64,000 nucleotides of DNA, taken from assembly GCF_001677475.2 (NCBI RefSeq), contig NZ_CP015229.1. One strand, 5' to 3'. This stretch comes from Escherichia coli (GTDB taxonomy: Bacteria; Pseudomonadota; Gammaproteobacteria; Enterobacterales; Enterobacteriaceae). Under the pieces are notes generated by a model that had not been told where the DNA came from, did no database searches, and was given only the letters and a program-made list of their open reading frames with translations. Position 1 is the stretch's first letter; each line of letters opens with the position of its first letter. A program made the position numbers and the translations under genes. Below are positions 27,679-48,415 of the stretch, piece after piece.

Positions 27679-28074
27679 ATGGCTGAAATGACATTTGAAC
27701 TGAAACACGGGCTTCTGACCGGCAAAGGCACGGCAGATGAAACCCTGCATAAAACCGTGAAGCTGCGCGAGCTGACCGCCAGCGACGTGATTGATGCACA
27801 ACTGGCCGCAGAACGTGTGGTACTGGGCGAGAACGGAAAGGCGGTGGCCTACTGTTCTGAAGTGCTGATGGGGCTGGAGATGATGCGCCGTCAGGTTGCG
27901 TCCATCGGCAACATTCCCGGCCCGCTGGACATGAAACTGCTGCGAATGCTCCACCCGACAGACCTTGAGCTTATCAGCACCAAAGCTGCTGCGCTGGATG
28001 AAATGCTTGAGGAGGTGGCAACTCGGGGGCGAACTGATGCCGCTGGCGGCGGCACTGATGAACCTGCTGGTTAA
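27679..28074 (+). CDS. Tail assembly chaperone (Mu gp41-like); C-terminus may continue in the overlapping +1 frame 27965-28174
   Basis: 131 aa between tube and tape-measure genes; Gly/Ala low-complexity tail in this frame while overlapping ORF 27965-28174 looks more protein-like. Confidence 0.45.
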   Translation: MAEMTFELKHGLLTGKGTADETLHKTVKLRELTASDVIDAQLAAERVVLGENGKAVAYCSEVLMGLEMMRRQVASIGNIPGPLDMKLLRMLHPTDLELISTKAAALDEMLEEVATRGRTDAAGGGTDEPAG

Positions 28075-28160
28075 CCTGTCTCAGCGATTCAGCATTCAGT
28101 ACCTGGAACAGCTGCCCCTGTGGCAGCTGTTCCGTCTGATAAAGCAACTGGAGAAACAGC

Positions 28161-31300: not shown

Positions 31301-32370
31301 TGGGATCCGTGATTCTTACCGTTGACGGCAAACTGTGGGAAGGCTGGACGGAAATGTCTGTCAGTCGTTCCCTGAAGGCGATTGCCGGTGAGTTTGAGCT
31401 CAGTGTAACAACCCGCTGGTCATCGGCGGCACCGCGCGTGATTCGTGAGGGGCAACCCTGCACGGTCAGGCTGGGTGCAGATACCGTGCTGACGGGGTAT
31501 ATCGATGATTTTATCCCCAGCTATGACGCAAACAGCGTGGAGATTCGCGTCATGGGGCGCGATAAAACCGGCGACCTGGTGGACTGCTCTGTGGTGCATT
31601 CGTCCGGGAAATGGAAAGGCGTGCGGCTTGAACAGGTGGCGGCTGATGTCTGCCGCCCGTTCGGGATAACCGTCATCACGGAAAACCCGACCGGGGAGGC
31701 GTTTGCGTCCGTTGTTCTGGAACAGGGTGAAACGGGTTTTGAACTGCTCGACCGGCTGGCAAAACAGCGCGGCGTTCTGCTGACGTCTGACGGGGCGGGT
31801 AATCTGATTATCACCCGCGCCTCTTCCGTTCGCGCGGGCGTGTCACTGGTGCTGGGAAAAAATATCCTCGCCGCCCGTGGGCGCTTCAGCTGGCGGGAGC
31901 GTAACAGTCAGTACATCATCAAGGGCACCACCAGTGCCGGTGGCAGAGTGTGGGACAGCCAGCCTGCCCCGATGGTGGGCGGTCGCCAGTACATCATCGA
32001 AGACTCTGAAATTAACCGTTACCGTCCGCGCATTCTGGTCAATGAAGACAGCCTGACCGTGGGCGGGGCCAGCATTCGCGGAGAATGGTATAAAGCCCGG
32101 ATGCTGGGAGAGGCCCGCACGACGGAAATCACGGTGGCAGGCTGGCGCGAACAGGGCGACAGCGGTCCGCTGTGGCAGACCAACCGCCTTGTCGATATCG
32201 ACGACAGCATTCAGAACCTGAAAACCACCTGGCTGATATCCGGGGTGACCTGGACGGATGGCGCACAAGGGCGGATGACGGTTCTGGCGCTGGTTCCGCC
32301 TGAATCACTGGATATGCCGGAAATGAAAGCGAAGACGAAGAAAACAAAGGCGGTGGCCACATGGGATTAA
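31300..32370 (+). CDS. Tail/baseplate hub protein (Mu P-like, late control D-like)
   Basis: 356 aa; gene order. Confidence 0.55.
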   Translation: MGSVILTVDGKLWEGWTEMSVSRSLKAIAGEFELSVTTRWSSAAPRVIREGQPCTVRLGADTVLTGYIDDFIPSYDANSVEIRVMGRDKTGDLVDCSVVHSSGKWKGVRLEQVAADVCRPFGITVITENPTGEAFASVVLEQGETGFELLDRLAKQRGVLLTSDGAGNLIITRASSVRAGVSLVLGKNILAARGRFSWRERNSQYIIKGTTSAGGRVWDSQPAPMVGGRQYIIEDSEINRYRPRILVNEDSLTVGGASIRGEWYKARMLGEARTTEITVAGWREQGDSGPLWQTNRLVDIDDSIQNLKTTWLISGVTWTDGAQGRMTVLALVPPESLDMPEMKAKTKKTKAVATWD

Positions 32371-32897
32371 ACGCCATTGCCCGCCGTCTGCGACTGATGG
32401 TTGACCGTGCCATTGTCCGCATGGTGTCTGACAGTCTGGAGCGGCAGAACCTGCAAATCCAGACGCTGGCAGATGCCACCGACGACGACGTGGAACGCTT
32501 CCAGAACTACGGTTTTACATCCGTGCCGCCGGAAGGTTCTGAAGCCATAGTGCTGGCCGTTAGCGGGCGGCGTGACGGGCTGGTTGCCATCGCGGTGGAG
32601 GACAAGCGATGTCGCCCGAAAGGGCTGTCCCCCGGCGACGTCCGGCTGTATCACCAGGACGGCAAATCACATATCACGTTAAGGAAAGGCGGAATTATTG
32701 AAATCACAGGGGAACAATTAAACGTTTCAGGGAAAACGGTAAATCTCACCGCCGACGAATTACTGGCTATAAATGCAGGAAATATGAAATTCGTCGGTCC
32801 CTGTGAGTTTACTGAAGATGTCAGAATCAACGGCAAATCTTTCAGCGAACACATTCATAAGGACGGCGACAATGAGAATACATCACCGCCCGTATGA
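32361..32897 (+). CDS. Baseplate assembly protein V-like (spike; Mu gp45-like)
   Basis: 178 aa; gene order within baseplate cluster. Confidence 0.55.
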   Translation: MGLNAIARRLRLMVDRAIVRMVSDSLERQNLQIQTLADATDDDVERFQNYGFTSVPPEGSEAIVLAVSGRRDGLVAIAVEDKRCRPKGLSPGDVRLYHQDGKSHITLRKGGIIEITGEQLNVSGKTVNLTADELLAINAGNMKFVGPCEFTEDVRINGKSFSEHIHKDGDNENTSPPV

Positions 32898-33346
32898 CGA
32901 CAGGAATCCGCTGGAATAACATGCTCTCACGGGGTGACATCACCGTCACCCATAACGGCCTCTCACTGGATGAGGGGCTGGTCACTCAGGTTCTTATCTG
33001 CCTTTTCACCGATGCCCGTGCTGATGACGATGATGTCATTCCTGATGGTTCCGGCGACCCGCGCGGATGGCCGGGCGACACGTACAGCGATTTTTCGTGG
33101 GGTTCCCGCCTGTGGCTGCTTGAGCGCGAAAAACTGACGGAAGATGTCCGCCTGCGCGTGGAAGACTACGCGCGGTTGTCCATGCAACCGCTGCTGCGGG
33201 CCGGTTACGCCCGTAACGCCACCGTCACGGCCAGAATCATCGTCCCTGACCGTATTGCCTTTCAGGTGGTGTTAACCCGCCCGGACAAAACCACGCTCAC
33301 AATTGAAATCACCCGCCGATGGGAGGCCACCATTAATGCCGTATGA
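32894..33346 (+). CDS. Baseplate protein (Mu gp46-like)
   Basis: 150 aa; gene order. Confidence 0.5.
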   Translation: MTTGIRWNNMLSRGDITVTHNGLSLDEGLVTQVLICLFTDARADDDDVIPDGSGDPRGWPGDTYSDFSWGSRLWLLEREKLTEDVRLRVEDYARLSMQPLLRAGYARNATVTARIIVPDRIAFQVVLTRPDKTTLTIEITRRWEATINAV

Positions 33347-34412
33347 AATCCCCACGCTGGGCAAACTGATTGCCGACGGCGAAAAAGATATTGCGTATGA
33401 ACTCGGCCTGCAAAAGCTGCCGCCTGTCAGTGTTGAGCAGGCACTGAACGTGTCATTCAGCAGTCAGGTCCGGGATTTATACGACCATCAGAGCTGGATT
33501 AAGGACCAGATAATTCCGTCCACCGCGTCTGATGATGAAACCATTATCAAAACAGCAACGTATGAAGGGGTTATCCGCAAGCAGGCCACCTTTGCCAGCG
33601 GGCCGGTGACCTTCACCAGTCAGTCCCCCATTCCGGCAGAAACCCGGATGCAGTACGACACGAATCAGGTGTATCAGGTACTCACATCCGGCGAGGTACA
33701 GAACGGCGAGGTCACTGTCATCGTGCAGGCTGAAGAAGCCGGTGTTGCGGGCAATCTTGCTGCCGGTGCCGTGCTGACCCTGCTGTCCCCGTTGCCCGGA
33801 ACGGGCAGCACAGGCGCGGTGACTGAAAGTGGCATCACCGGTGGCGCAGATATCGAATCCATCGCAGAGCTGCTGGACCGTCTGCTGTATATGCGCCGCA
33901 ATCCCCCGGTGGGCGGTGCACTGCATGATTACGTCATCTGGGCGCGTGAAGTGCCGGGTGTCAGCCGCGCGTGGGCATGGGATGCGTGGCACGGCCCCGG
34001 CACGGTCGGGCTGGCATGGCTTTATGATGACCGTGAAGACATTATCCCCACACGGGACGACCTGAAGACAATGGAGCAGTATCTGTTCTGCCACAAACAC
34101 CCGGCCACCGGCGTGATGGTGGGCAAACCGGGCGGCATCGAGGTCTGGCCGGTGCAGGTCAGGCTGAAGAAGCTCGACCTGTCCATCCGTCTGACACCGG
34201 ACAGCCAGGCGAACAGGAACGCCGTCCGGGCAAACCTGACCGCATTACAGAAAACGCTGGCCCCCGGTCAGATGCTGCCGGTGTCCTCGCTGCGCACGTC
34301 CATCGGTATGACGTCCGGTATCACGGATTACTTCCTCAACATCGGGGAAGACACCACCAGTGATGTGGATGAGCTTATCACTATCGGGGAGGTGACATGG
34401 CTCACAGCGTGA
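33336..34412 (+). CDS. Baseplate J-like protein (Mu gp47-like)
   Basis: ATG 33336 overlapping previous stop; about 358 aa. Confidence 0.55.
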   Translation: MPYEIPTLGKLIADGEKDIAYELGLQKLPPVSVEQALNVSFSSQVRDLYDHQSWIKDQIIPSTASDDETIIKTATYEGVIRKQATFASGPVTFTSQSPIPAETRMQYDTNQVYQVLTSGEVQNGEVTVIVQAEEAGVAGNLAAGAVLTLLSPLPGTGSTGAVTESGITGGADIESIAELLDRLLYMRRNPPVGGALHDYVIWAREVPGVSRAWAWDAWHGPGTVGLAWLYDDREDIIPTRDDLKTMEQYLFCHKHPATGVMVGKPGGIEVWPVQVRLKKLDLSIRLTPDSQANRNAVRANLTALQKTLAPGQMLPVSSLRTSIGMTSGITDYFLNIGEDTTSDVDELITIGEVTWLTA

Positions 34413-34981
34413 CGGAATGGCTGACCGCGCTGCAACAGGTCATGCCACGGGGTAAGGCATGGCCGCGCGATAACGACGCGGATTTAAACCGTTTTTTAAG
34501 GGCGCTTGCAGAGCGTTTAACCCGCGTTGAATACGACGCCTCGCGCCTGCATGTGGAGATGCGACCGGAAACCACGCTCCAGCTGCTGCCGGAGTGGGAG
34601 CAATATCTGGCACTGCCGGAATGCGGAATTGCCGCCACCACAACGGAAGCCCGCCGCCGGGCCGTGGTGGAGAAATACCGCCGCAAAGGCGGGCTGGCAA
34701 CCTGGCAGATTGAAGCCGCTGCGGCGGCGCTGGGCTTCACCATTAAGGTGACGGCCGTTCTGCCGCACCACTGCCTGCGTGACTGCATGTACCCGCTGCA
34801 TCCGGCACGGTATCGCTGGCTGCTGAAAGTGGAAGTCCCGGACAACGATGCCGGGCGGTTTACCTGTATTGATGACGTCATGACGCCATTAATCAGCGAA
34901 CGCACCCGCGAGCTGGAATGCCTGCTGAAGCATTACCGGCTGGCGGGTACGGAATATGAATATTATTACACCGGAGAATAA
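34397..34981 (+). CDS. Tail protein (Mu gp48-like)
   Basis: 194 aa, last baseplate-cluster gene before the tail fibre. Confidence 0.5.
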   Translation: MAHSVTEWLTALQQVMPRGKAWPRDNDADLNRFLRALAERLTRVEYDASRLHVEMRPETTLQLLPEWEQYLALPECGIAATTTEARRRAVVEKYRRKGGLATWQIEAAAAALGFTIKVTAVLPHHCLRDCMYPLHPARYRWLLKVEVPDNDAGRFTCIDDVMTPLISERTRELECLLKHYRLAGTEYEYYYTGE

Positions 34982-34984
34982 TTT

Positions 34985-35764
34985 ATGTTTCACGTGGACA
35001 ATAATACGGGTGTGCCTGTTATGCCGCCTGTTGCGGCTGAATTAAGCAAAACAACGCTTTATTTCACCGAAGGCGGGAACGGTATTCCAGCCACTTATCC
35101 AGGACCAGACTGGTTTAATATTATTCAGTCTGAACTGCTGGAAATTCTCCGGCAGGCAAATATCAAACCGGATAAAAATACCACCAACCAGATTATGACG
35201 GCGCTGAAAAAACTGTTTATTACGAACAGTGGTTCAGCCGGAGCTATTGCTGGATTAACCGGTGAGAATAATACGTTCCCGTATTTTACCGGCGAAGACG
35301 AAATGGCATTAACGCCGCTCAGTGCGTTTGTGCGCGGCATTCTTGGTAAAACCACAGCCGATGAAATTATTGATGCACTTTCATTACGTGACACGGTAAA
35401 TAAAGCCAGTAGTGCCGTACCGAATACCCGCAGGGTCAACGGCATGGCCCTGACTTCAGATATCACCATCAGCAACATCAGCGGCAACGCCGGAACGGCA
35501 ACCCGACTTCAGACGGCCCGCAGGATTAACAATGTGCTGTTTGATGGTTCCGGTGATATCACAATCCCTGCCGGGATGAGTCAGTCCACAGCGGATGCGC
35601 GTTATGTTCAGAACGTTCAGTTAGGTGCGCAGGTACAGGGGGGATCTCAGGCACCCACAGGGTGTGTGGTCACCTTTGTTGATGGCGGCGAGAAGATGGA
35701 ATATATCCAGTATAAACCCCTGCAAATTTATATTAACGGCGCATGGCGCACGATATCCGGTTAA
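34985..35764 (+). CDS. Tail fibre protein (short; S-like)
   Basis: 259 aa; followed by an assembly chaperone gene. Confidence 0.55.
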   Translation: MFHVDNNTGVPVMPPVAAELSKTTLYFTEGGNGIPATYPGPDWFNIIQSELLEILRQANIKPDKNTTNQIMTALKKLFITNSGSAGAIAGLTGENNTFPYFTGEDEMALTPLSAFVRGILGKTTADEIIDALSLRDTVNKASSAVPNTRRVNGMALTSDITISNISGNAGTATRLQTARRINNVLFDGSGDITIPAGMSQSTADARYVQNVQLGAQVQGGSQAPTGCVVTFVDGGEKMEYIQYKPLQIYINGAWRTISG

Positions 35765-35778
35765 TTAAGGAGAAAATA

Positions 35779-36309
35779 ATGGAACTCAGAAACGTCACGC
35801 GTTATTACCCTGAAGATATGCCTTATGGTGAAAATATTCAGTATTTCCGTAGTGAAGACGGGCAGGATTTTTATGAATCGCTGGATAAATTCACGAAGAA
35901 ATACAAATTGTGTATTCACCCGGAAACCGGCGTGATTTATTCGATGGCAGAAGACGTGTCCCGTCTTTATCCGGCGGGGTTCACTATTGTGGAAGTGGAC
36001 GAACTGCCGGAGGGTTTTGGCATTGAAGCCTGCTGGTATTACCGGGATGGCGAAGTGCTGCCGGTTCCGGTTGATTATTCGCAACTGGCAGAAAAGCAAC
36101 GCCAGCGTCTTCTGGCTGAAGTCAGGGACATCACCTCCGACTGGCGAACCGAGCTGGAGTTGGGCACCATCAGCGACGATGACAAAGCCCGTCTTACGCA
36201 GTGGATGGCATATATCAAAGCGGTGAAGGCGCTGGATTTAAGCACCGTTACTGATGAAGCCTCCTTTAATGCCATCAACTGGCCGGAGCGTCCCGATGCC
36301 GCAGCTTAA
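35779..36309 (+). CDS. Tail fibre assembly protein (Tfa/U-like)
   Basis: ATG 35779 with AAGGAGAAAA RBS; about 176 aa; follows a fibre gene. Confidence 0.6.
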   Translation: MELRNVTRYYPEDMPYGENIQYFRSEDGQDFYESLDKFTKKYKLCIHPETGVIYSMAEDVSRLYPAGFTIVEVDELPEGFGIEACWYYRDGEVLPVPVDYSQLAEKQRQRLLAEVRDITSDWRTELELGTISDDDKARLTQWMAYIKAVKALDLSTVTDEASFNAINWPERPDAAA

Positions 36310-38545
36310 AGGTGTGATTAAAACGCCCACGGGAGAACCGCTGGGCGGCGCAACCATTACTCTGACCTCCCTGCACAACCGTGCAGGGATCCTGAAAGGT
36401 GTTTTCAGCCACGTCACCACACAGAGCGGGGAGTACGACTTCCCCGTTCTGCCGGGTGTGTACAGCGTTCGCCTGACACAAAGCACACAGCGCCTTTCAG
36501 AAATCGGTGTCATCCGCGTTTATGAAGATTCACAGGACGGTTCGCTGAATGATTTTCTGGGTGCAACCGATATTGACCTGCGCCCGGAAGCCCTGAAGAA
36601 ATTCGAGGAGCTGGCGCAACAGGCGCAGCAAAGCGCGGAAGAAGCCGGAGAGCACGCGGACGCGGCTGAACAGGCCCGCCAGGATACAGAAACCCTCGCC
36701 GGGGAAATACAGCAGGATGCAGAAGAAATTGCAGGCAATGTGCAGAAAGCTGAAGAGCTTGCCTCTGAAACCAGTCAGAATGCAGCCCGCGCAGAGCAGG
36801 CTGTCAAGGATGCCGACACGATAGTCCGGAAAGCGGTCGATAAACTTGCTGATGCTGCAACGCTGAGCGGCGAGGCAAAAGCCAGTGCCGGAGCTGCCGC
36901 ACAAAGCGAACAGAATGCGGAAAATCACGCTGATAATGCAGCACAAAGCGCACAGCAGACCGCGCAGGATGTGCAGGCAACGGTCACAGCCCGCAGTGAT
37001 GCGGAACGTTTTGCGGGTGAGGCAGAAAACAGCGCACAGTCATCAGGCACAGCGCGGGACGAATCAGTCGATGCCGCCGAACGCGCCCGCCTTTATCATA
37101 ATGCCGCATCATCAGCTGCAACCAGCGCGGAAAATGCAGCAAATGCTGCACTCGGGCATGAAAACAGCGCCGCCGAATACGCCCGACAGGCTAAAGCCAG
37201 CCAGGATGCAGGTGCAGACAATGCGCAGGAAGCGAAACAGTACAGGGATGAGGCGCAGCAGATAGTTGATGACCTGAATGCAACAAATGCCTCCACGACA
37301 GAAAAAGGTCTGGTGCAACTGTGTAGTGATACGGACAACGACAGCGAGGAACTGGCTGCCACGCCAAAGGCTGTCAAAACCGTCATGGACGAGACGAAAA
37401 CAAAAGCGTCACTGGACAGCCCGGCTTTCACCGGCACCCCAACCACCCCAACCCCACCGGATGATGCCGCCGGTCTGGAAGCAGCGAACGCAGCGTTTGT
37501 GCGCAAACTGCTTGCTGCGCTGGTTGGTTCATCGCCGGAAGTTCTGGACACCCTGAACGAGCTGGCAGCGGCGCTGGGCAATGACCCGAACTTTGCGACG
37601 ACAATCACAAACGCGCTGGCAGGCAAACAACCGCTTAATGACGTCTTAACGGCAATCAGCGCACTGACGCAACGGGCAGATAATCTTCTGTACTTCAATA
37701 CAGACGGGAATGCCTCACTGTCTCCGCTGTCAGAGAAGGCCCGCGCATTACTGGCGCATGACACGGCTGAAGCCATGCGCACGGAGCTTGAGCTGAGCGC
37801 GGCTGCGACGATGGAACCCCAGAGTGATATCCGTGACCGCACACCGGGCAGGCTGGCCCTGTCCGGGATGTATGGGTTTGGACAGGCATTCACCAGCGCC
37901 GAAGCTCTGTCATTTAACGGACAGGCTGATTTCGTTATATGGCTGCAGACAGTCACACCGGGGCGTTATGCGGTCAGTATTGCGGACTCCTCCACGCTGC
38001 TGAAGGGGACCACGAAATTTAACGGTATCATTGATGTGATGTGGTCACCGTCTGATAACGACGAATCAGACACGGCGCGTAAATTCAAAACGCTGCTGTA
38101 CTACAACCAGTATTACGAGGATGAGCACAGCATACATTGTATGCGTTATCGCTACAGTGGTAACAGCTGGAATGCAACATCAAGCCTTATTGTGTATGAC
38201 GGCAACTCCCTGGCATATCTGATGTCCTCAACCGCCGGTAATGGTCCGTTCTCATATTACCAATACCCGGCCGTCGGTGTGCCGATTATGGCGGTATATC
38301 AGGGAGAAAGTTTTGGTGAAAATGCTTCTCTGGGACTCGGTGATACTGTGCCGGGTTCCCGTCTTGGTCCTCTGGCCATGAGTGCACAGGTTAGTGATAC
38401 AGGGACATACGCATCCTCACCGCAGGTTGTGATTGGCGGTGCCGGTGAATACAACTTCCCCGGTCGTTACACGGCGCTTTCGGGCCTGGGTAACAATTAT
38501 GGTACTCAGCGTGGCTTTATCGGTCTTTTTGTACGCATTGAGTAA
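36296..38545 (+). CDS. Long tail fibre protein with Ala/Glu/Gln-rich coiled-coil repeats (side-tail-fibre-like)
   Basis: ATG 36296; about 749 aa; long low-complexity helical repeat region (residues ~110-330) and a distinct C-terminal domain. Confidence 0.6.
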   Translation: MPQLKGVIKTPTGEPLGGATITLTSLHNRAGILKGVFSHVTTQSGEYDFPVLPGVYSVRLTQSTQRLSEIGVIRVYEDSQDGSLNDFLGATDIDLRPEALKKFEELAQQAQQSAEEAGEHADAAEQARQDTETLAGEIQQDAEEIAGNVQKAEELASETSQNAARAEQAVKDADTIVRKAVDKLADAATLSGEAKASAGAAAQSEQNAENHADNAAQSAQQTAQDVQATVTARSDAERFAGEAENSAQSSGTARDESVDAAERARLYHNAASSAATSAENAANAALGHENSAAEYARQAKASQDAGADNAQEAKQYRDEAQQIVDDLNATNASTTEKGLVQLCSDTDNDSEELAATPKAVKTVMDETKTKASLDSPAFTGTPTTPTPPDDAAGLEAANAAFVRKLLAALVGSSPEVLDTLNELAAALGNDPNFATTITNALAGKQPLNDVLTAISALTQRADNLLYFNTDGNASLSPLSEKARALLAHDTAEAMRTELELSAAATMEPQSDIRDRTPGRLALSGMYGFGQAFTSAEALSFNGQADFVIWLQTVTPGRYAVSIADSSTLLKGTTKFNGIIDVMWSPSDNDESDTARKFKTLLYYNQYYEDEHSIHCMRYRYSGNSWNATSSLIVYDGNSLAYLMSSTAGNGPFSYYQYPAVGVPIMAVYQGESFGENASLGLGDTVPGSRLGPLAMSAQVSDTGTYASSPQVVIGGAGEYNFPGRYTALSGLGNNYGTQRGFIGLFVRIE

Positions 38546-38559
38546 TGAGGAAATCAGGC

Positions 38560-39135
38560 ATGAAAATCAGAGCGGTGAAAGGTATCAGAAACGCACATTA
38601 TCTTGAAAATGGTGCGGTTGACTGCGAGGTGTTATTTGAAGGTGAAACGGAGTTCGCCCTGTATACTGCCATACAGGATGATATGGCCCCGACAGGCCAG
38701 CACATCTGGCAGGAGCTGCAAAGCGGGAAATGGGGCGAAATCGCCCCGTTCACCGTCACGCCGGAACTTATTGCAGCGGCAAAGGATGCCAAAAGGCGGG
38801 AAATTGAGGCATGGCGCGACAGTCAGGAAAACGTTGAGTTTATTTTCACGTTTGATGGCCGTCGTTTTGATGGCGGAAAAACCTCGCAGTCACGCCTTGC
38901 CCCCGTGGTTGCAGCAGCGCAGGCCGGACTGCTTCCGGAGGGATTTTTCTGGACTGATGCGGATAATAACAACGTCGTACTGACCAGGGAGAAACTTATT
39001 GCGCTGAACGATGCCATGATGGTGGCCATGGTGACGGAGGGCTTTAAAATCCACGAACGCCAGCGCGAGATGAAAGAGCAACTTTCCCTGCTGTCCACAC
39101 TGAGCGATATAAGAGCGTTAACGCCCGGTTATTAA
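38560..39135 (+). CDS. Tail fibre assembly protein (second Tfa)
   Basis: ATG 38560 (alternative ATG 38545 right after the fibre stop); about 191 aa downstream of the long fibre gene. Confidence 0.5.
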   Translation: MKIRAVKGIRNAHYLENGAVDCEVLFEGETEFALYTAIQDDMAPTGQHIWQELQSGKWGEIAPFTVTPELIAAAKDAKRREIEAWRDSQENVEFIFTFDGRRFDGGKTSQSRLAPVVAAAQAGLLPEGFFWTDADNNNVVLTREKLIALNDAMMVAMVTEGFKIHERQREMKEQLSLLSTLSDIRALTPGY

Positions 39136-39158
39136 GTCATCATTTTGTATAGTTTATA

Positions 39159-39257
39159 ACGATCGATACAATCGTATCGATCGTCAGTTTGCATCATCTG
39201 TGATTAAATACCCTGGCCCTCAGGGCTGTCGTATCTGGTTAATACACAGGTGGGATC
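39159..39257 (+). promoter_or_regulatory. com-mom upstream control region with GATC-containing inverted repeat
   Basis: Inverted repeat ACGATCGATAC/GTATCGATCGT (39159-39184) carrying two GATC sites, a third GATC at 39254-39257 abutting the com ATG. Confidence 0.45.
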
Positions 39258-39443
39258 ATGGATGCTGTTCGTTGTAAAAACTGCAATAAATTGCTGTTTA
39301 AAGGAAGTTTTAAGCATATAGAAATCAAATGCCCTCGTTGTAAACGTTACATTGTCATGTCGAGTGCCCGGGAGCATCCCACGGAGCTGTATTGTGGGAA
39401 AAGAGAAGAAATCACGCATCCTTACAAAACCCTGCGTTATTGA
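39258..39443 (+). CDS. com: Com zinc-finger translational activator of mom
   Basis: 61 aa; [10 protein letters not shown]...CPRCKR four-Cys zinc finger closely resembling Mu Com; overlaps the mom 5' end. Confidence 0.8.
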
Positions 39444-40089
39444 GTATGAAGGCCGTATTGTCGGCTATGGTTCAAGGGAACTGCGCGTTGAAACCATATC
39501 CTGCTGGCTGGCCCGCACAATCATTCAGACAAAGCACTATTCCCGCCGTTTTGTGAATAACTCCTGGTTGCATCTGGGGGTATTCAGCGGACGTGATCTG
39601 GTTGGCGTTCTCCAGTGGGGATACGCCCTTAATCCCAACTCAGGGCGTCGGGTCGTGCTGGAAACGGATAACCGGGGCTATATGGAACTGAACCGCATGT
39701 GGTTACACGACGACATGCCCCGCAACTCTGAATCACGGGCTATCAGCTACGCACTGAAAACCATCAGGTTACTGTATCCATCAGTGGAGTGGGTTCAGTC
39801 CTTTGCAGACGAACGCTGCGGACGTGCAGGTGTTGTGTATCAGGCATCTAATTTTGATTTTATTGGTAGCCATGAAAGCACGTTCTACGAGCTGGACGGC
39901 GAGTGGTATCACGAGATAACGATGAACGCGATTAAGCGTGGAGGACAACGAGGCGAGTATTTGCGGGCTAATAAGGAGCGGGCGGTGGTACACAAATTTA
40001 ATCAGTATCGCTACATCAGATTCCTGAACAAGCGCGCAAAAAAGCGATTAAATACCAAGCTATTCAGGATTCAGCCATACCCGAAGTGA
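39394..40089 (+). CDS. mom: Mom DNA-modification protein (anti-restriction)
   Basis: Frame open from 39352; start placed at GTG 39394 (231 aa, start uncertain); last gene before the prophage right end as in Mu. Confidence 0.7.
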
Positions 40090-40154
40090 TCTCACTTAAT
40101 GAATAAAAAAGCAGCGGCCAATGCCGCTGTTTCGTTTGAAGCGCGAAAATTAAA

Positions 40155-40204
40155 GTTTTCGCATTTATCGTGAAACGTTTTCGCGTTTTTCGTGCGCCGC
40201 TTCA
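40155..40204. repeat. Prophage right terminus (Mu attR-like transposase binding sites, ends ...GCGCCGCTTCA)
   Basis: Reverse complement reads TGAAGCGGCGCACGAAAAACGCGAAAACGTTTCACGATAAATGCGAAAAC, nearly identical to my recollection of the canonical Mu right end. Confidence 0.7.
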
Positions 40205-40207
40205 GCG

Positions 40208-40609
40208 ATGACCCCAAACGGGGAAATGTATTATCCTGATGCTGTTTATAGTTCAGATTATTCATCGCAAGCAATGCCTGGTGATCGTGAAACAGTAGCA
40301 GGTGCTTCTCACTTGTTTATTCATGAAATGATGCATGTTTGGCAATATCAGAAAGGGTATGCAGTTAAGTTGCGTGGTTTATTTTCCTGGGCGGCAAATT
40401 ATCATTACGATCTTAATTTACAGTCAATTTCTTCTTATTCCATGGAACAACAAGCATCTATAGTTGCTGATTATTGGCTATTAATTAACTATGGACTGGT
40501 GGCTGATTTGGCAAATGTTAACTATGTAGGTGATACAACTGAATCAGTGAACACTCTATCGGAAAAATACAAAAAGGTGCTTAATTTTTTTCCTGCGGGT
40601 GTCATATGA
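40208..40609 (+). CDS. HEXXH motif protein (putative zinc metallopeptidase-like toxin domain), possibly a 5'-truncated remnant
   Basis: 133-aa ORF starting 4 nt after the prophage terminus; HEMMH signature; stop overlaps the start of the next gene (ATGA). Confidence 0.45.
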   Translation: MTPNGEMYYPDAVYSSDYSSQAMPGDRETVAGASHLFIHEMMHVWQYQKGYAVKLRGLFSWAANYHYDLNLQSISSYSMEQQASIVADYWLLINYGLVADLANVNYVGDTTESVNTLSEKYKKVLNFFPAGVI

Positions 40610-40962
40610 AGAGATTCTTTTTGTTTTTCTTTTTGTCGGGATGCACTGTTGGTGATTATGTTCGCCCATTGTTACCCGGTAGTGTATATTTGCAAGACGG
40701 ACAGATTTGTTCAAAACCAGACGATGGGAATATTATTTCAAATTATGTTTTATATGAAGGTAAATATGGCAATGCAATAAAGTTGAAAAGAGTGACAGGT
40801 CAGTTCGAACCCGTATGTATTGATATAAGTGAGCTATCTTCAGATGTTATGTATATCGGGAAATATATGCTCTCTTCCGGAAGTAAAAAAGAATACTATG
40901 GTTTTAGCATAATTAGAACCGGAGAACGTATTTTAAGACTTGATGATAATCATATCAAATAA
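40606..40962 (+). CDS. Lipoprotein, candidate immunity protein
   Basis: 118 aa; signal peptide with lipobox (MKRFFLFFFLSGC); AT-rich; translationally coupled to the upstream HEXXH ORF. Confidence 0.5.
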   Translation: MKRFFLFFFLSGCTVGDYVRPLLPGSVYLQDGQICSKPDDGNIISNYVLYEGKYGNAIKLKRVTGQFEPVCIDISELSSDVMYIGKYMLSSGSKKEYYGFSIIRTGERILRLDDNHIK

Positions 40963-41183: not shown

Positions 41184-43178
41184 ATGAGTTTTGCAGCTAC
41201 AGATTATCCATCCGGCGCACTAACTGGATCGGGTACACATAACGTGACTTTGAGCGGCAGCGCAGTTCCTGATGGAATGTTACTGTTTGCAAGCTTAGGG
41301 GGTACAGAAACAGTAGGGGAACTATTTACTTATTCTATTAAATTAAAAACTCCTGACATCCTGAACCTGGGCTATGTTTCCCCCGCAGCCAACCTACAGC
41401 TCAAACCGATGGTGGGCAAAGATCTGTGCGTCAATATCGAATTGGATGGCGGCGGAAAACGTTACATCAGCGGGCTGGTGACGGCGGCACGCGTGGCTGG
41501 TCATCAAGGACGTTCGGTGGTGTATGAACTGCGGCTCGAACCGTGGTTAAAAATACTGACCCACACTAGTGACTACAAAGCGTTTCAAAATAAAAACGTG
41601 GTGGAGATCCTGGATGAGGTACTGGATGAGTACCCCTGGCCAGTGGAAAAACGACTGGTGGAAAATTATCCGACTCGCGCCTGGCAGGTGCAGTACGGTG
41701 AAACAGATTTCGATTTTATTCAGCGCCTGATGCAGGAGTGGGGTATCTACTGGTGGTTTGAGCACAGCGAGAACAGTCACACGTTAGTGCTGGCTGATGC
41801 CATTAATGTCCACAAGGCATGCGCAGATTCGCCGCTGGTGTGTTATTACCAGAAAGGGCTGAAACTGGACAAGGAGTTTATCCATACCATCACAGCAAAT
41901 GAAAGTCTGCGCAGCGGACAGTGGGTGCTGAATGATTTCGACTTTATGAAGCCGCGTTCACTGCTGAAGAGCACCGTGGCTAATCCGCGTGAAACCGGCC
42001 TTGCTGAATATGAGCACTACGAATGGCCGGGAGATTACTTCACAAAGAGTGAAGGTGAAATGCTGACACGCATTCGCATGGAAGAACAGCGTAGCCCCGG
42101 TAGTCGGGTACAGGGCAGCGGCAATATTCGTACCCTGATAACGGGTTTTACCTTCACCCTGGAAAACTATCCGACAGCCGAAGTGAACCGGGAATATCTG
42201 CTGGTACAGACCACGCTATTTATACAGGACAATGCGCAACACAGCGGCCAGGAGCAGCATTTCTCTTACTCAACCAGCTTTGAACTGCATCCCACCAGCG
42301 AAGTTTACCGCCCACAACGAACCCTGTGCAAACCCCACACTAAAGGCCCGCAGAGCGCAATCGTCACCGGCCCGGCAGGGCAGGAAATCTGGACAGATAA
42401 ATATGGACGGGTGAAAGTTCAGTTTGGCTGGGATCGTTACGGTAAGAATGACGAAAATAGTTCCTGCTGGGTCCGTGTCAGTTATCCGTGGGCGGGTAAA
42501 GGATTCGGTGGCATTCAGATCCCGCGCATTGGTCAGGAAGTACTGGTGGATTTCAAAAACGGTGATCCGGATTTACCGATAATTGTTGGGCGTACCTACA
42601 ACCAGGACACCATGCCACCGTGGGGACTACCGGGCGCAGCGACGCAAAGCGGATTTTACAGTCACACTATCGGCGGCGGCCCAACCAATGCCAACGCACT
42701 ACGTTTTGAGGATAAACCTGGCGGTGAAGAGGTCTGGCTACATGCCGAAAAAGATCAGCGGATTGAAGTAAATAATAATGAAAGCCACTGGGTGGGCAAT
42801 AATCGCCTTAAAGTCATTGATAAAACAGAAACAGCGATAATTGGTGAGGAACGTTCTCTTACAGTTCAGATGGATGATACCTCCCTTGCCGGACAAAACA
42901 AAACGATTCAGGCCGTACAGAATTTACGCCTTGCTGCGGGAGATTCCATAATTCTTAGTTGTGGGAACACTATCCTGCAAATGACCAGTGACGGAATATT
43001 TAATATAACCTGTAAGAATTTTAATATTACTGCAACAGAAAATGGAAAGATAAATACACAATCAGGTCAGCTTGATTTAAATATGAATAACAGGGCGGCA
43101 GATATACTTCCGCCTGGAACATCGGAAAAAACAGCCCTTCAATTGGCGATAGACGTCGCCTTCATGACTAAAAAATAA
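41184..43178 (+). CDS. vgrG: Type VI secretion system spike protein VgrG
   Basis: 664 aa with conserved VgrG gp27/gp5-like core (e.g. [38 protein letters not shown]); AT-rich promoter region upstream. Confidence 0.85.
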
Positions 43179-43228: not shown

Positions 43229-43681
43229 ATGACGGAGTATTATCTCAATGAAACTGTTGTAAGTTTTTCCGGGAATATTATTCAGGACAGTACTATTAAT
43301 ATGCTTCGCCTCAGCGATCCCGACGCTGCACTCATTATCAGCCGGGGCCAGATGCAGGAAGGAGACGAATTAGCCTCCCAGATTGAACAGCAAATGAAAA
43401 AACTGGAGAAACAGGTAAAGGATCTTCACTACACGCCCGTTCAGGTAACACGGGTGGGGATTAATGACGGTGAAGAAGGACTGGAAATACAGAGCCAGTT
43501 TCTCCGGGGTAACGAGCAGGTGTACCAGTGTCAGGTGGCATTTGTATTGCCGGGTGAGCGGGTCATGATGGCCTTCACCTACGCCCGAACCACACCGCTG
43601 ACCCCGGCAGATATGACGCGCTGGGCTGAAATTAAAAAGAATCTGCGCTTCAGGATGCGGCAGGAAGCCGGGACGAATTAA
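43229..43681 (+). CDS. DUF1795 (EagR-like) effector chaperone
   Basis: 150 aa between vgrG and a prePAAR-Rhs gene; typical position and size. Confidence 0.6.
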   Translation: MTEYYLNETVVSFSGNIIQDSTINMLRLSDPDAALIISRGQMQEGDELASQIEQQMKKLEKQVKDLHYTPVQVTRVGINDGEEGLEIQSQFLRGNEQVYQCQVAFVLPGERVMMAFTYARTTPLTPADMTRWAEIKKNLRFRMRQEAGTN

Positions 43682-43699: not shown

Positions 43700-46600
43700 A
43701 TGGAAGAGGCATTCTGGGCGGCAAGGCAGGGTGATGCCCTGCTGCATACGTCGTTTATGGCAGATGTGCTGGGGGCAGTTGTAGAGGTTGCCGCCACAGC
43801 CCTGGTGGATGTTCTGGTTGTCGGAACCATGGCGGCGCTGGGCGGAGTTGAAGTGGCAACGCTGGGCTGCTCAACCATTTTAGCGATCGGTATAGCAACA
43901 GCGGTATTTATGTCGTATCAGGGCTGGAATGACCGAATCAGTAGGGAAAGTGAGCAACTGGCGAACTGGCTTTTCCCGCCTCAGATTGAAGGTTACATCC
44001 TCACCGGCTCTGGCGACACATGGATCAACAGCAAACCTGCCGCGCGGGCCGCGGCGACTGCGGCATCGCGGCAGGACATTGAGGCGCAGGAGGCGCAGGC
44101 GAAGGCGGAACAGGAAGAAGCGCAGCGTCAGGAGGATGCCAGAACGTTCCTGGATGTGGCCGGGGAATATCTGGAAATGGCGGGGGCCATAGCCCTGGCG
44201 GTTAACCCGGTGACAGGGCCTGTGCTGATGTCCCGGGCGCTGCACGACCAGCTCAGTACGGAAGAAGGGCGTTCTGAAATGGTGGATGGCGTGACACATT
44301 TTGTGTCGGAACTATGGCAGCCCACCGTGGCCAGTGCGGCCCCGGGCTCCACCCCGACCCCTGACGATAAAATCGACTGCCATAAACATCCCTCCTCACT
44401 GACGCAGTTTCTCGCACAAAAAAAAGCCGCCTTTCTGGATGACCCCCTGGGAACGGCCCTTAACCTGCTGAGTCCGGGCGGTATGCTGGAAACCGCCTTT
44501 CAGGGAGTGAATGCGGTTATTGGCAGCATCAGTAATCTGTTCAAAGGCGATGATGAACCGCCCGCAGCGGAATATATCGCGGAAGGCGCGCGGGATGTGC
44601 GTATCAACAGCCAGCCGGCGGCACGCAGCGGGGCACGCTGCACCTGCGAGGCCAGGGTGGTGAATGAGCCGGGGAACGGGGCGTTTGTGTCACCGGATGT
44701 CCGCATTGGCGGTCCGTTACTGGTGGTCAGGGATATCAGAAGCGGCAGGTCGCAGATAACCCTGGTGGCAACCGTGGCGCTGATGTTTCTTCGCCCGGGC
44801 AAAATGCTTTCTAAAATCGCCTGTTTTGCTGCCAGTGTCGGGATGGGGGTGATGACGCAGAAGGCCATCAGTGCCCTTCCGCATCCGGTCAATGCCGCCA
44901 CCGGAGCCAAATATCTGGCCGATGACGATGATTTTGACTTCAGTCTGCCGGGCCACTTTCCGCTGGACTGGCAGCGCGTGTACAGCAGTCGTGACGACCG
45001 CACGGAAGGGATGTTCGGGCAGGGCTGGAGTGTAATGTATGAAGTCAGCCTCGAGCGCACGCCGGGTACTGCTGACGAAAACTGTATGACCTTTGTGTCG
45101 GGCATGGGACGACGTCTGGATATGGAGGCCGTGCTGCCGGGGAGCGGGTTTTACAGCCCCGGCGAAGGACTGGCAGTACGGCGGGGTGAGCAGGGGCACT
45201 GGCTTATCAGCAGCGATGACGGGCAGTTTTTTCTGTTTGAGGCCGACCCGCGTCACCCGCAGCGCCAGCGGCTGAAAATGCTGGGCGACCGCAACAGCAA
45301 CTGTCTGAATCTGTACTACGACGAGCTGGGGCGCATCACGCAAATCAGCGGTGAACAGCAGCGTCCGTGCATCCGTCTGCATTATGAACTGGCGGCGCAT
45401 CCCCGGCGGGTGACACAGATTTATCAGCATTTCCCTGAGATGGCTCCTTTACTGCTGCGTCGTTACCGCTATGACGAGGCCGGCGACCTGAACGGCGTGT
45501 ACGACAGCACGGGGCACCTGCTGCGCGAGTTTGCTTACGACGAAAACCACTGCATGACCCTGCACCGCCAGCCGGGCGGCGAAGGGTATTATTACCAGTG
45601 GGGCTGGTATGAAGGCCCGGATGACGCAGCGTGGCGGGTGACGGGGCACCACACGGACAGCGGTGAACAGTACCGGCTGGCGTGGAGCCTGGCGGCACGC
45701 AGGCTGTGCGTGACGGACGGGCTGGGGCGCACGCGTTATCATCAGTGGGACGCGCAAAATCAGGTGACGGCGTACCAGGACGAAGCCGGGCAGGTGACGA
45801 CGTTCCGCTGGAGCGACGAAGAACGGCTGTTACTGGGAATGACCGATGCGCAGGGCGGCAAATGGCGCTATGTGTATGACCGGCAGGGGCATATCACGGA
45901 GACGCACGACCCGCTGGGGCGGGTGGCACAGACACAGTGGCACCCGGTGTGGCACCAGCCGGAAACGGAGGTGGACGCGGCGGGGAACAGCTGGTGCTGT
46001 GAGTACGATGAACGCGGCAATCTTCTTGCGGTGACCGACCCGCTGCAGCAGAACACCCGGTATCAGTATGACCGCCACGGCCAGGTGGTGCAGATAACGG
46101 ATGCGCGCGGGGGGAATAAATACCTTCAGTGGAACGAAGACGGGCAGCTCATGCGGCACACGGACTGTTCCGGCTCGCAGACGGCCTGGTTCTACGACGA
46201 ACGCACGCGGCTGATACGGATGACAGACGCGCAGAGCCACAGCACGCGCTACGGGTATGACGACAGCGGCCACCTGACGGAGGTGATACTGGCGGACGGC
46301 CGCACGGTGAATTACCAGTCGGACGCGGCGGGCAGGCTGGTGAAGTACACCAGCCCGATGGGGAGGATAACGCGCTGGCAGCGGGACGGGCAGGGCCGGG
46401 TGCGCAGCCGGACAGACGCGACGGGGCGCAGGACGGCGTTCGGGTACGATGCCTACGGGCGTCTGGTCACGCTCACGAACGAGAACGGAGAAAGCTACCG
46501 GTTCCGCCATGACGTGCTGGACCGTCTGGCGGAGCAGATAAATCCGGACGGCTGCCGCCAGACGTACCGCTACAACGCGCTGAACGCGGTCACGGAAGTG

Positions 46601-48415
46601 GTGTTCACCGGGGACCGGGGCGGTGAAATCCGCCACCGGCTGGCACGTGATGCGGCGGGCCGGCTCACGGCAAAGGAGACAGCCGATGGCCATACGGAAT
46701 ACGTCCATGATGCGGCAGACCAGCTACTGGAAATCCGCCGCCGACGGTCGGATGCCGGGGAAACAGACGCACCGGAGATTATCCGTTTCAGTTACGACAG
46801 ACTGGGGCGGATGCTGACCGAGGAGACGGCGCAGGGCGTCCTGACCCATCAGTACGATGAACTCAGCAACCGGACAGCCACCACCTTTCCGGATGGCAGA
46901 ACGCAGCGTCATCTGTACTACGGCAGCGGCCATCTCCAGCAGATAAATCTGGACCGGGAGGTCATCAGCGAGTTCACACGTGACGCCCTGCACCGGGAAG
47001 TGCTCAGAAGTCAGGGGCGACTGAGCACGCGGCAGCTTTATGACCCCGCCGGGCGGCTGAAGCGCAGGGAGACATACAGCGGGATGCGCGGGGTGGTACC
47101 GGAGACGTTCACGGACCGGCAGTACAGCTACAGCGGCGAGGATGAATTGCTGAAGACGCGGCACAGCCGGCGGGGGGAAACGGATTACGTCTACGACCCC
47201 ACGGGGCGCATCACGGCGTGCCGCTCGGAGGATGAGGGGTATCTGGCGAGCTGGCAGTACGACGCGGCGGGAAACCTGCTGGGGAGGCGCGCGGGGGAAA
47301 GGGCCACGGCAGAAAACAGCGTGGTGCCGTTCAACCGGCTGATGTCTTACCGTGGTGTGCACTACCGTTATGACGAATTTGGCCGGACGGTGGAAAAGGA
47401 GGGCCGGAGCGGCACGCAGAGTTACCGTTATGATGCGGAACACCGGATGGTGGAAGTGACGACAGCGCGGGGGACATACCGGTATGTGTACGATGCGCTG
47501 GGGAGGCGGACGGAAAAACAGCACATCAGCCCTGACGGTAAAGCGTACAACCGGACGACATTTTTATGGGACGGAATGCGGCTGGCGCAGGAGAGCAGGC
47601 CGGAGGGAATAAGCAGCCTGTATATCTACAGCGACCCGGGGAGTTATGAACCGCTGGCGCGGGTGGATAAGGCGGGCAAAGAGGGCCCGAACCGGATACT
47701 GTATTTTCACACGGATGTGAACGGTGCGCCGGAAGAGATGACGGACAGTGACGGGAAAATCGTGTGGGAGACGGGGTATCAGGTCTGGGGTAACACGATA
47801 CAGGAGAAGGACCACGGCGGGGTGGAGCAGAACCTGCGCTACCAGGGACAGTACCTCGACAGGGAAACGGGGCTGCACTACAATCTGCACAGGTACTATG
47901 ATCCGGATGTCGGGCGGTTCATGGTAACGGACCCGATAGGGCTGGCGGGGGGGCTGAATCTTTATACTTATGCGCCTAATCCAGTAAGCTGGATAGATCC
48001 CCTTGGTTTAAGTTGTTACTTTAATTCTAAGTCTAATCGCTGGCATGACAGGCAGACAGGTCGTTTTACAAAACGACCAACAGATCCTTCAGAATTAGTT
48101 CATAATGGCCGAATTGACAAGGCTGATATAGATGTTTGGGCTAGTCAAGGAGGGATTCCAAATACATGGGGGCATGATCCGTTAAAATTCCCCAGTGGTG
48201 GTTTTAAATATGATGCTGGTAATTATACTGTTCATGGTCATGGTGCTAATCCATCTGCGGCAGCTAAATTTCCTAATTCTAATGCGGCAAATGGGCCGAC
48301 AGCGAGCATGAAAAATACTTCAACAGGTGAAGTGTTTAGAACCGATGGAACTTGGGGGACATTCAAATCAGATGCCAATGGTGCTCATATCCCCCTTGAT
48401 GGCTCACCTTATTGA
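43700..48415 (+). CDS. rhs: Rhs-family polymorphic toxin (T6SS effector) with prePAAR motif, TM segment, YD repeats and variable C-terminal toxin domain
   Basis: 1571 aa; N-terminal AARQGDALLH (prePAAR) plus hydrophobic helices; many YD-type repeats; conserved DPIGLAGGLNLYTYAPNPVSWIDPLGL boundary followed by about 135 aa of unrelated AT-rich sequence. Confidence 0.85.
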   Translation: MEEAFWAARQGDALLHTSFMADVLGAVVEVAATALVDVLVVGTMAALGGVEVATLGCSTILAIGIATAVFMSYQGWNDRISRESEQLANWLFPPQIEGYILTGSGDTWINSKPAARAAATAASRQDIEAQEAQAKAEQEEAQRQEDARTFLDVAGEYLEMAGAIALAVNPVTGPVLMSRALHDQLSTEEGRSEMVDGVTHFVSELWQPTVASAAPGSTPTPDDKIDCHKHPSSLTQFLAQKKAAFLDDPLGTALNLLSPGGMLETAFQGVNAVIGSISNLFKGDDEPPAAEYIAEGARDVRINSQPAARSGARCTCEARVVNEPGNGAFVSPDVRIGGPLLVVRDIRSGRSQITLVATVALMFLRPGKMLSKIACFAASVGMGVMTQKAISALPHPVNAATGAKYLADDDDFDFSLPGHFPLDWQRVYSSRDDRTEGMFGQGWSVMYEVSLERTPGTADENCMTFVSGMGRRLDMEAVLPGSGFYSPGEGLAVRRGEQGHWLISSDDGQFFLFEADPRHPQRQRLKMLGDRNSNCLNLYYDELGRITQISGEQQRPCIRLHYELAAHPRRVTQIYQHFPEMAPLLLRRYRYDEAGDLNGVYDSTGHLLREFAYDENHCMTLHRQPGGEGYYYQWGWYEGPDDAAWRVTGHHTDSGEQYRLAWSLAARRLCVTDGLGRTRYHQWDAQNQVTAYQDEAGQVTTFRWSDEERLLLGMTDAQGGKWRYVYDRQGHITETHDPLGRVAQTQWHPVWHQPETEVDAAGNSWCCEYDERGNLLAVTDPLQQNTRYQYDRHGQVVQITDARGGNKYLQWNEDGQLMRHTDCSGSQTAWFYDERTRLIRMTDAQSHSTRYGYDDSGHLTEVILADGRTVNYQSDAAGRLVKYTSPMGRITRWQRDGQGRVRSRTDATGRRTAFGYDAYGRLVTLTNENGESYRFRHDVLDRLAEQINPDGCRQTYRYNALNAVTEVVFTGDRGGEIRHRLARDAAGRLTAKETADGHTEYVHDAADQLLEIRRRRSDAGETDAPEIIRFSYDRLGRMLTEETAQGVLTHQYDELSNRTATTFPDGRTQRHLYYGSGHLQQINLDREVISEFTRDALHREVLRSQGRLSTRQLYDPAGRLKRRETYSGMRGVVPETFTDRQYSYSGEDELLKTRHSRRGETDYVYDPTGRITACRSEDEGYLASWQYDAAGNLLGRRAGERATAENSVVPFNRLMSYRGVHYRYDEFGRTVEKEGRSGTQSYRYDAEHRMVEVTTARGTYRYVYDALGRRTEKQHISPDGKAYNRTTFLWDGMRLAQESRPEGISSLYIYSDPGSYEPLARVDKAGKEGPNRILYFHTDVNGAPEEMTDSDGKIVWETGYQVWGNTIQEKDHGGVEQNLRYQGQYLDRETGLHYNLHRYYDPDVGRFMVTDPIGLAGGLNLYTYAPNPVSWIDPLGLSCYFNSKSNRWHDRQTGRFTKRPTDPSELVHNGRIDKADIDVWASQGGIPNTWGHDPLKFPSGGFKYDAGNYTVHGHGANPSAAAKFPNSNAANGPTASMKNTSTGEVFRTDGTWGTFKSDANGAHIPLDGSPY

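Follow-up and report, generated by a model that had tools for sequence, protein, structure and literature searches.

What are the two small genes that lie between the right end of a Mu-like prophage and a vgrG gene in this Escherichia coli chromosome, and does the first of them still encode a working protein? Both lie in the 64,000-nucleotide stretch of DNA that was analysed as a whole (hereafter the window). From the letters alone, the first-pass annotation had described a 133-aa open reading frame (ORF) with a HEMMH motif, an ATGA overlap with a 118-aa ORF, and a lipobox in the latter. All of these features were confirmed in the sequence, and the pair is composed as follows.

40208..40609, + strand: 5'-truncated tpe gene, 133 aa, comprising codons 44-176 and the stop of a 176-aa Tpe-family gene; almost certainly a pseudogene.
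40322-40336, + strand: HEMMH (HExxH) motif inside the 133-aa ORF.
40445-40447, + strand: codon of the predicted third zinc-ligand Glu, inside the 133-aa ORF.
40606..40962, + strand: putative tpi-like immunity gene, intact, for a 118-aa lipoprotein with the lipobox L-S-G-C13 and the conserved C35 and C71.
40642-40644, + strand: codon of the lipobox Cys in the lipoprotein ORF.

The two ORFs overlap in ATGA at 40606-40609, and the N-terminus of the 118-aa ORF reads MKRFFLFFFLSGC. Our answer, which we regard as very probable, is that the locus is an auxiliary T6SS island with a Tpe/Tpi-type pair, in which the toxin gene has been cut by the Mu-like prophage and the immunity gene is intact.

The DNA upstream of the pair belongs to the prophage, for which the following features were recorded.

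5153..40204, + strand: Mu-like transposable prophage of ~35 kb; its right end is the last base of Mu/SfMu and its left end is the switch from P1 to Mu homology.
5401-5916, - strand: repressor-like gene of the prophage.
39258-39443: com of the prophage, with Com Pfam matches on identical draft contigs.
39394-40089: mom of the prophage, with Mom Pfam matches on identical draft contigs.
40110-40129: hairpin terminator after mom.
Up to 40204: right-end transposase-binding repeats of the prophage.
40205..40209, no strand assigned: presumed 5-bp copy of the Mu target site, GCGAT, from comparison of window 40195-40215 with the uninterrupted sequence ...GAACAGCGATGACC of E. coli 2014C-3338.

The Mu-type terminus that had been proposed directly ahead of the pair proved to be real. 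A blastn match to Mu (AF083977, 35778-36717) stopped at 40204, which corresponds to base 36717, the last base of Mu, and the blastn match to the SfMu genome, which runs through com and mom, likewise ended on the last base at 40204. The right-end sequence ...TTTTCGTGCGCCGCTTCA finishes at this position and ends in CA, aligned to the final base of Mu, with com-mom just inside. Furthermore, a Pfam match to the Mu transposase was obtained on draft contigs identical to the window. Host DNA restarts at 40205 with GCGAT, and ATG 40208 is the fourth nucleotide past the prophage terminus. The target consensus of Mu is N-Y-(G/C)-R-N, which GCGAT fits. The GC content is 37% in the 133-aa ORF and 34% in the lipoprotein ORF, as against 49% in vgrG and 54% in the prophage.

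The first-pass annotation had supposed that the 133-aa ORF might be the 3' remnant of a longer gene, whose uninterrupted upstream part should then be sought in prophage-free genomes; that part was found. When 40205-41183 was used as a megablast query, the region was detected in 226 of 5,426 complete E. coli genomes (~4%), on the chromosome every time. It was mostly annotated there as two hypothetical proteins, and no phage was present. In E. coli 2014C-3338, the region is 99.4% identical over 979 nt and sits between ansP and the vgrG/Rhs island, and its intact first gene consists of 531 nt encoding a 176-aa protein (WP_000058705.1). The window joins this allele at ...GAACA|GCGATGACC, with the prophage between codons 43 and 44, and ATG 40208 is the internal Met44 of the 176-aa protein. 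The window copy is without codons 1-43, the promoter and the ribosome site. The 5' 130 nt of the intact gene read ATGTCATTAAGGAGAATGACATCTGG..., and this missing 5' part was absent from the 64-kb window, as was a Mu left end of classical sequence. An exact-sequence look-up of two hypothetical ORFs, in which the 5' fragment was fused to the Mu left end, returned no record. As a separate matter, the idea that the pair is part of the prophage was rejected, since host DNA begins at 40205 and the pair is phage-free in the 226 genomes.

Within the window, the fragment differs from the intact allele by one synonymous change and one residue change, L127F, and the lipoprotein gene by one synonymous change. 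Because both are nearly identical to the intact allele, the insertion is judged to be recent.

The left flank of the prophage is of a different nature. Window positions 1-5152 are P1-type phage-plasmid DNA, 99% identical to ~95-kb plasmids. The P1 homology stops and the Mu-like homology starts at 5152-5155, and the P1 gene pmgC is interrupted precisely at the beginning of the Mu-like left end (5153-5155). The left flank (..GGGTATA[TA]) is unrelated to the right flank (GCGAT), and so plasmid-type DNA and chromosome are connected through this copy of the prophage; in this assembly the insertion is more than a simple one. Four draft contigs elsewhere also carry the P1/Mu-left junction. The join between P1 and chromosome could have arisen as a Mu-mediated cointegrate, by two Mu copies recombining, or by a mis-join of the assembly through a repeated prophage. 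It is possible, if rather doubtful, that the prophage marks one of the junctions at which Mu fused a P1-type plasmid prophage to the chromosome, with P1 pmgC at its left end and the chromosomal T6SS island at its right, and that this arrangement was fixed in a natural E. coli lineage. If this were true, the event disarmed a T6SS toxin and left its immunity gene an orphan.

These flanks also bear on whether the right-end junction itself is genuine. An assembly could have been mis-joined through a repeated prophage, in which case the gene would be intact in the real genome; the left flank is P1-plasmid DNA and not the 5' half of the gene, the two flanks have no shared target duplication, and such flanks are what a mis-join between two Mu copies gives. 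However, at least six independent draft assemblies contain the right-end junction without a single base changed, and the host side opens with a sequence that fits the target consensus of Mu. A product identical to the 133-aa one is recorded on 16 draft contigs. On six fetched draft contigs from six assemblies, the junction was identical to the window over 884-1060 nt with 0 mismatches, and some of the six reach >2 kb into the prophage. Neither this junction between the Mu right end and the gene nor the left-hand one was found in complete E. coli genomes or PLSDB plasmids. We consider a mis-join at the right end highly improbable: this junction, and hence the truncation, is real whatever befell the left end.

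The identity of the truncated gene was examined with the intact 176-aa protein as well as the fragment. In a phmmer search of the PDB, the intact protein gave a sole, strong match to 6H56 (E 1.9e-20, residues 4-138), in which LFIHEMMHVWQYQ pairs with LFIHEMTHVWQHQ and YSMEQQASIVADYW pairs with YNIEQQGDIVRDYF of the VgrG2b effector domain. The 133-aa fragment by itself also matched 6H56 (E 1.5e-8) with the HExxH motif aligned, and for this reason the motif is not a chance occurrence. H82, E83, H86 and E123 are the equivalents of VgrG2b H935, E936, H939 and E983, respectively; they are invariant in 35 homologues, and all four zinc/catalytic residues are kept in the fragment. Structure prediction led to the same protein. 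The AlphaFold2 (AF2) model of the intact protein (pLDDT 89.6, pTM 0.89) matched 6H56 in a Foldseek search of the PDB (E 1.3e-9, TM 0.64, 33% identity), and 6H56 alone was significant, the next match having an E of 1.6.

More than 140 effector homologues were obtained; those with a source name were all from Enterobacterales, and most of the full-length ones have ~160-200 aa. They are usually named 'type IV secretion protein Rhs' at NCBI, which is a misnomer. Within E. coli, full-length matches are 88-99% identical. The intact 176-aa protein has no signal peptide. Neither the effector, whether intact or as the fragment, nor the lipoprotein had a usable match in Pfam (sole match, DUF6782 with E 0.19), and no NCBIfam model was found for the effector. 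By these sequence relationships, the 133-aa ORF is the tail of a predicted T6SS gluzincin effector gene of the VgrG2b/Tpe family.

Does the tail still make a protein? The alternative to a remnant, also entertained in the first-pass annotation, is a functional stand-alone metallopeptidase translated from ATG 40208, its message supplied by read-through of the late (mom) transcript of the prophage or by an unrecognised promoter. The ORF is uninterrupted, with only the two changes noted above relative to the intact alleles, and the zinc/catalytic residues are complete; such near identity is, however, expected of a recent insertion. At 80% coverage or more, the 5' region is present in 214 complete E. 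coli genomes and the 3' part in 224, whereas the junction occurs in none of the complete genomes, and the fragment falls short of the length of most full-length family members.

The missing part is also structured and highly conserved. In the AF2 model, residues 1-43 make up a strand (3-4), a helix (8-18) and a second strand (29-30) with pLDDT 93-97, and they contain the invariant R4, E10 and Q38 together with nine near-invariant positions in the 35-homologue alignment. They carry half of the 6H56 score, which falls from 77 bits for the intact protein to 38 for the fragment. No other part of the fold is as well conserved as this lost strand-helix-strand, and the window copy, which has no complete catalytic domain, belongs to the family by descent.

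The upstream sequence was then of interest for expression. The frame had been described as open across the junction, and it is, but only for 18 codons upstream of ATG 40208, where a TAA within the Mu end, near 40151, closes it. No ATG, GTG or TTG lies in frame between this TAA and ATG 40208. An ORF extending into a phage-encoded N-terminus was rejected on account of this in-frame stop and the lack of a start after it. Neither a Shine-Dalgarno sequence nor, on the + strand, a promoter-like site was found ahead of ATG 40208, and the hairpin terminator that follows mom (40110-40129) precedes the ORF. Because of the missing Shine-Dalgarno sequence and the position behind the mom terminator, the effector copy in the window is almost certainly a dead gene, that is, a pseudogene. 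A working stand-alone peptidase has, in our judgement, very little chance of being the right explanation. Of the two readings originally offered, the remnant has thus held, as a 176-aa gene in prophage-free genomes of which the window retains the part from Met44, and the stand-alone protein has not.

The partner of the remnant, the 118-aa lipoprotein, matched the NCBIfam model NF045617, which is titled 'putative T6SS immunity periplasmic lipoprotein'. The alignment spanned positions 7-103 of the 119 in the model (E 2.3e-7) and scored 30.9 bits, which falls below the curated cut-off of 43 bits. Its relatives in E. coli and Citrobacter scored 31-35 bits against the same model. The genes that follow the effector homologues in Enterobacter and Serratia reached 83-102 bits and carry Pfam DUF7480; a direct match of the lipoprotein to DUF7480 (PF24295) was not obtained. 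When the E. coli/Citrobacter clade was compared with the DUF7480 alignment by hhalign, the two aligned over 88 columns with 82% probability and an E of 1.1e-5. In a joint alignment of 29 sequences, L10, G12, C13, C35 and C71 were invariant, and the L-S-G-C lipobox aligned with the L-T-G-C of the DUF7480 members. Furthermore, the position of the lipoprotein gene after the effector gene is syntenic with that in homologous pairs.

The clade is narrow, with relatives only at the level of Escherichia and Citrobacter. Within E. coli, its matches share 86-98% identity with the window copy and so vary somewhat more than those of the effector. Beyond the close relatives, none was found by an HMMER profile search of 1.84 billion representatives or by a word-indexed search; one spurious match in these searches was a 3183-aa repeat protein. 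The AF2 model of the lipoprotein was mediocre (pLDDT 66), and a Foldseek search of AFDB50 with it was uninformative, yielding nothing but the E. coli orthologue of the protein itself and beta-sandwiches of a generic kind. The profile and alignment comparisons support the assignment of the lipoprotein, from its sequence, as a short and divergent member of the NF045617/DUF7480 immunity family and the presumed intact partner of the toxin. The Thr at +2 probably directs sorting to the outer membrane, and by analogy with PA0261 the mature protein probably contains a C35-C71 disulfide.

It had been stated earlier that neither protein could be placed in a named family; this no longer holds, as both are now placed in experimentally studied families. 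Of the routes that had been suggested, profile-HMM searches gave a family match for the lipoprotein alone, below the cut-off, and Pfam and NCBIfam gave nothing for the effector; the phmmer search of the PDB and structure prediction both led the effector to 6H56.

Downstream of the pair, the window contains the following genes.

41184..43178, + strand: vgrG, T6SS spike gene, 664 aa (TIGR03361, 557 bits), directly downstream of the pair.
43229..43681, + strand: DcrB/DUF1795-type (Eag-like) chaperone gene (PF08786 on the identical gene in draft contigs).
43700..48415, + strand: PAAR-Rhs toxin gene, 1571 aa, with RHS_core, YD repeats and the Rhs-associated core domain.

Pfam matches to Phage_GPD, Phage_base_V and Gp5_trimer_C were obtained on the identical vgrG of a draft contig, and those to PAAR (faint), DUF6531 and RHS_repeat on the identical Rhs gene of a draft contig. 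The DcrB/DUF1795-type gene is, judging from its family, a likely chaperone for the downstream Rhs, and PAAR-Rhs is the second effector of the island. These three genes, directly downstream in the window, link the effector family to the T6SS. T6SS core genes were not found within the 64-kb window. We read the locus as a chromosomal auxiliary T6SS island, occupying the vgrG/Rhs site of E. coli that lies close to ansP.

A lack of co-occurrence elsewhere had been named in the first-pass annotation as grounds for refutation, but the two genes do occur together elsewhere, in the neighbourhoods listed below; the percentages after the genus refer to the effector.

Citrobacter farmeri, 68%: same order, with a vgrG fragment ahead; lipoprotein 48% identical.
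Enterobacter, 48%: pair after tssB, tssC, tssK and a clpV remnant.
Serratia, 51%: pair adjoining hcp.
Salmonella, 44% (E 4e-47, 188 aa): between clpV and a DUF7480 gene, in a T6SS cluster.

In all four genera, a gene for DUF7480 or a related small lipoprotein follows the effector homologue, with T6SS genes adjoining, and the Salmonella order clpV-effector-DUF7480 is the arrangement of SARI_02727/SARI_02726. Together with the homology to VgrG2b C-ter/PA0261, this gene order upholds the earlier readings of the pair as a zinc peptidase and an immunity lipoprotein, forming a periplasmic T6SS effector/immunity pair.

The two genes might instead encode a peptidase and a lipoprotein with a task unconnected with the T6SS, in housekeeping or, for example, in maintaining the envelope, with the proximity of vgrG being coincidental. 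Effector homologues do occur in Sphingomonadaceae, in which the T6SS is rare (PMC6899460), Pfam annotation is absent, and the lipoprotein lies below the cut-off of its family. On the other hand, the pair is accessory in E. coli, being limited to 226 of the 5426 complete genomes, and is AT-rich; vgrG, hcp, tssBC or clpV adjoin it in five genera; and its homologues have been shown experimentally to be T6SS effector/immunity pairs (PMC6899460, PMC12992299). A role unconnected with the T6SS is accordingly very unlikely, and we retain the effector/immunity reading.

Other copies of the island have decayed differently. In another E. coli lineage, represented in 78 index blocks of the collection, the effector E123 codon has become a stop and the immunity gene is intact. 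Since this lineage exists besides the prophage insertion, the effector has been lost at least twice with the immunity gene kept. In 2014C-3338, the pair is intact and vgrG and rhs are pseudogenes, which is the reverse of the window (mosaic decay of the island).

We propose the following mode of action, drawn largely from the characterised homologues. The intact 176-aa protein would travel as a cargo effector of the T6SS, which would inject it into the periplasm of a Gram-negative cell nearby, where the gluzincin site, H82-E83-x-x-H86 with E123, would bind zinc and cleave an envelope target. As with VgrG2b, zinc-dependent proteolysis would make the cell bleb at its middle and lyse. The lipoprotein, translated together with the effector, is predicted to be exported, lipidated at C13 and exposed to the periplasm. 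It would there bind and block the effector in the producer and its kin, the binding being extrapolated from PA0261 and the neutralisation from SARI_02726. In the window, a Mu-like prophage has transposed into the effector gene at codon 43/44, and its promoter, its ribosome-binding site and the first 43 residues are gone. The orphan immunity gene, if transcribed, would guard against the same toxin from relatives. Two genes annotated in RefSeq as 'hypothetical protein' or, misleadingly, as 'type IV secretion protein Rhs' thereby gain names and a likely function. A locus with its toxin half dead and its antidote half surviving also bears on predicting which strains kill or resist in T6SS competition.

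The family in which the pair is placed, Tpe/Tpi (VgrG2b C-ter/PA0261), has been published, together with its fold, the periplasm as its site of action and the lipoprotein form of its immunity proteins in Enterobacteriaceae, and the pair reveals no new mechanism. VgrG2b C-ter is a thermolysin-like gluzincin whose zinc is bound by H935/E936/H939 and E983 (Wood 2019, PMC6899460). It is toxic in the periplasm, causing mid-cell blebbing and lysis, and this toxicity was abolished by H935A, E936A or H939A (PMC6899460). PA0261 binds VgrG2b C-ter and needs DsbA, and a disulfide is required for its function; the cysteines of its family are conserved, and the Enterobacteriaceae homologues are predicted lipoproteins (PMC6899460). 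In many Enterobacteriaceae, the domain occurs as a cargo effector whose gene has a small lipoprotein ORF after it (PMC6899460).

The Pseudomonas aeruginosa pair (6H56) resembles the E. coli pair in the catalytic domain, the zinc site of HExxH and Glu, and the fold, as well as in a small, periplasm-exposed immunity gene product encoded after the effector and having conserved cysteines. The VgrG spike of P. aeruginosa, however, carries the domain as a fusion placed after a TTR domain, whereas the 176-aa effector of E. coli is a cargo protein by itself, with its gene upstream of a separate vgrG. The signal peptide of PA0261 is of the ordinary kind, and the E. coli protein is a predicted lipoprotein; the effector domain of VgrG2b is complete and the copy in the window is truncated.

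A closer organisation is that of SARI_02727/SARI_02726 of Salmonella enterica subsp. arizonae SPI-20, reported in 2026 as a periplasm-acting toxin and a partly neutralising lipoprotein (PMC12992299). This effector is likewise a free-standing cargo, of 189 aa, with the lipoprotein gene overlapping its 3' end, and the Salmonella homologue in the same gene order is the one 44% identical to the E. coli effector. Whereas the E. coli pair occupies an orphan vgrG-Rhs island, that of Salmonella follows clpV within a T6SS core cluster, and SARI_02726 is a canonical DUF7480 protein of 154 aa, in contrast to the divergent 118-aa immunity protein. Tpe1/Tpi1 of Acinetobacter baylyi (ACIAD0053/0054; Ringel 2017), as described where it is cited in PMC6899460, shares the effector family, the cargo form, the downstream immunity gene and periplasmic action. 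By the same description, Tpi1 has an inner-membrane transmembrane helix, unlike the predicted lipid anchor of the E. coli protein.

Loci with an orphan immunity gene and a decayed effector, in T6SS and Rhs islands, show the same outcome, with the effector inactivated and the immunity gene intact; such loci decayed by deletion, recombination or point mutation, whereas the inactivation here was by a Mu-like prophage. What is specific to this locus is that the pair is located in an orphan vgrG-Rhs island of E. coli, that its immunity protein belongs to a divergent 118-aa clade below the family thresholds, and that its effector was inactivated by the prophage.

The arrangement around the effector gene was compared with that in Citrobacter farmeri (locus L013) and in E. 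coli 2014C-3338 (locus L001), where the following features were found.

L013:5000-5980, vgrG fragment of 326 aa followed by the effector gene
L001:8980-12489, vgrG and rhs, both annotated as pseudogenes

The vgrG fragment lies 5' of the effector gene in C. farmeri, and this order suggests that the effector/immunity pair was once part of its own vgrG-effector-immunity module, in tandem with the vgrG-Rhs module. In E. coli 2014C-3338, the pair is intact and adjoins the vgrG and rhs pseudogenes, whereas in the window the effector gene is cut and vgrG and rhs are intact. Given these opposite states, different parts of the island have therefore been lost in different lineages.

A second form of effector inactivation was observed in two other E. 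coli assemblies (L020 and L021).

L020:4001-4923 and L021, effector gene with a stop at the E123 codon, the site equivalent to window 40445-40447

The sequence there reads SYSM*QQASIV, the stop replacing the third zinc ligand, and this inactivation is independent of that in the window. Both assemblies still carry the immunity gene (118 aa) as well as vgrG-DcrB-Rhs, and the variant was found in 78 blocks of the genome collection index.

Downstream in the island, the Rhs gene overlaps a small ORF at its 3' end.

43700-48415, Rhs gene, with a putative C-terminal toxin domain past the DPxGL core motif
48327-48755, ORF of 142 aa

The ORF showed no family match; it presumably encodes the immunity protein to Rhs.

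The DNA to the left of the Mu-like prophage is of phage-plasmid type.

1-5155 (junction 5152-5155), P1-type phage-plasmid DNA, from an SLT transglycosylase gene to pmgC

This leftmost 5.15 kb of the window showed 99% identity to plasmids of approximately 95 kb, and pmgC is truncated at the start of the prophage left end. The left flank is thus P1 DNA and the right flank the chromosomal T6SS island; accordingly, the prophage flanks are non-cognate. When the two flanks were compared, no common 5-bp duplication was found. Non-cognate flanks could have arisen from a cointegrate, from recombination between two Mu copies or from a mis-join, and the identical P1/Mu junction was also present in four draft contigs of other assemblies.

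The prophage left end gave no match to the classical Mu left-end sequence, and the 171-aa repressor-like ORF (5401-5916) gave no NCBIfam match. Three copies of a ATTCAAGATAA-like sequence occur within the first approximately 170 nt of the left end (5160-5330) and are probably the transposase-binding sites of a Mu relative whose left end and repressor region differ from those of classical Mu.
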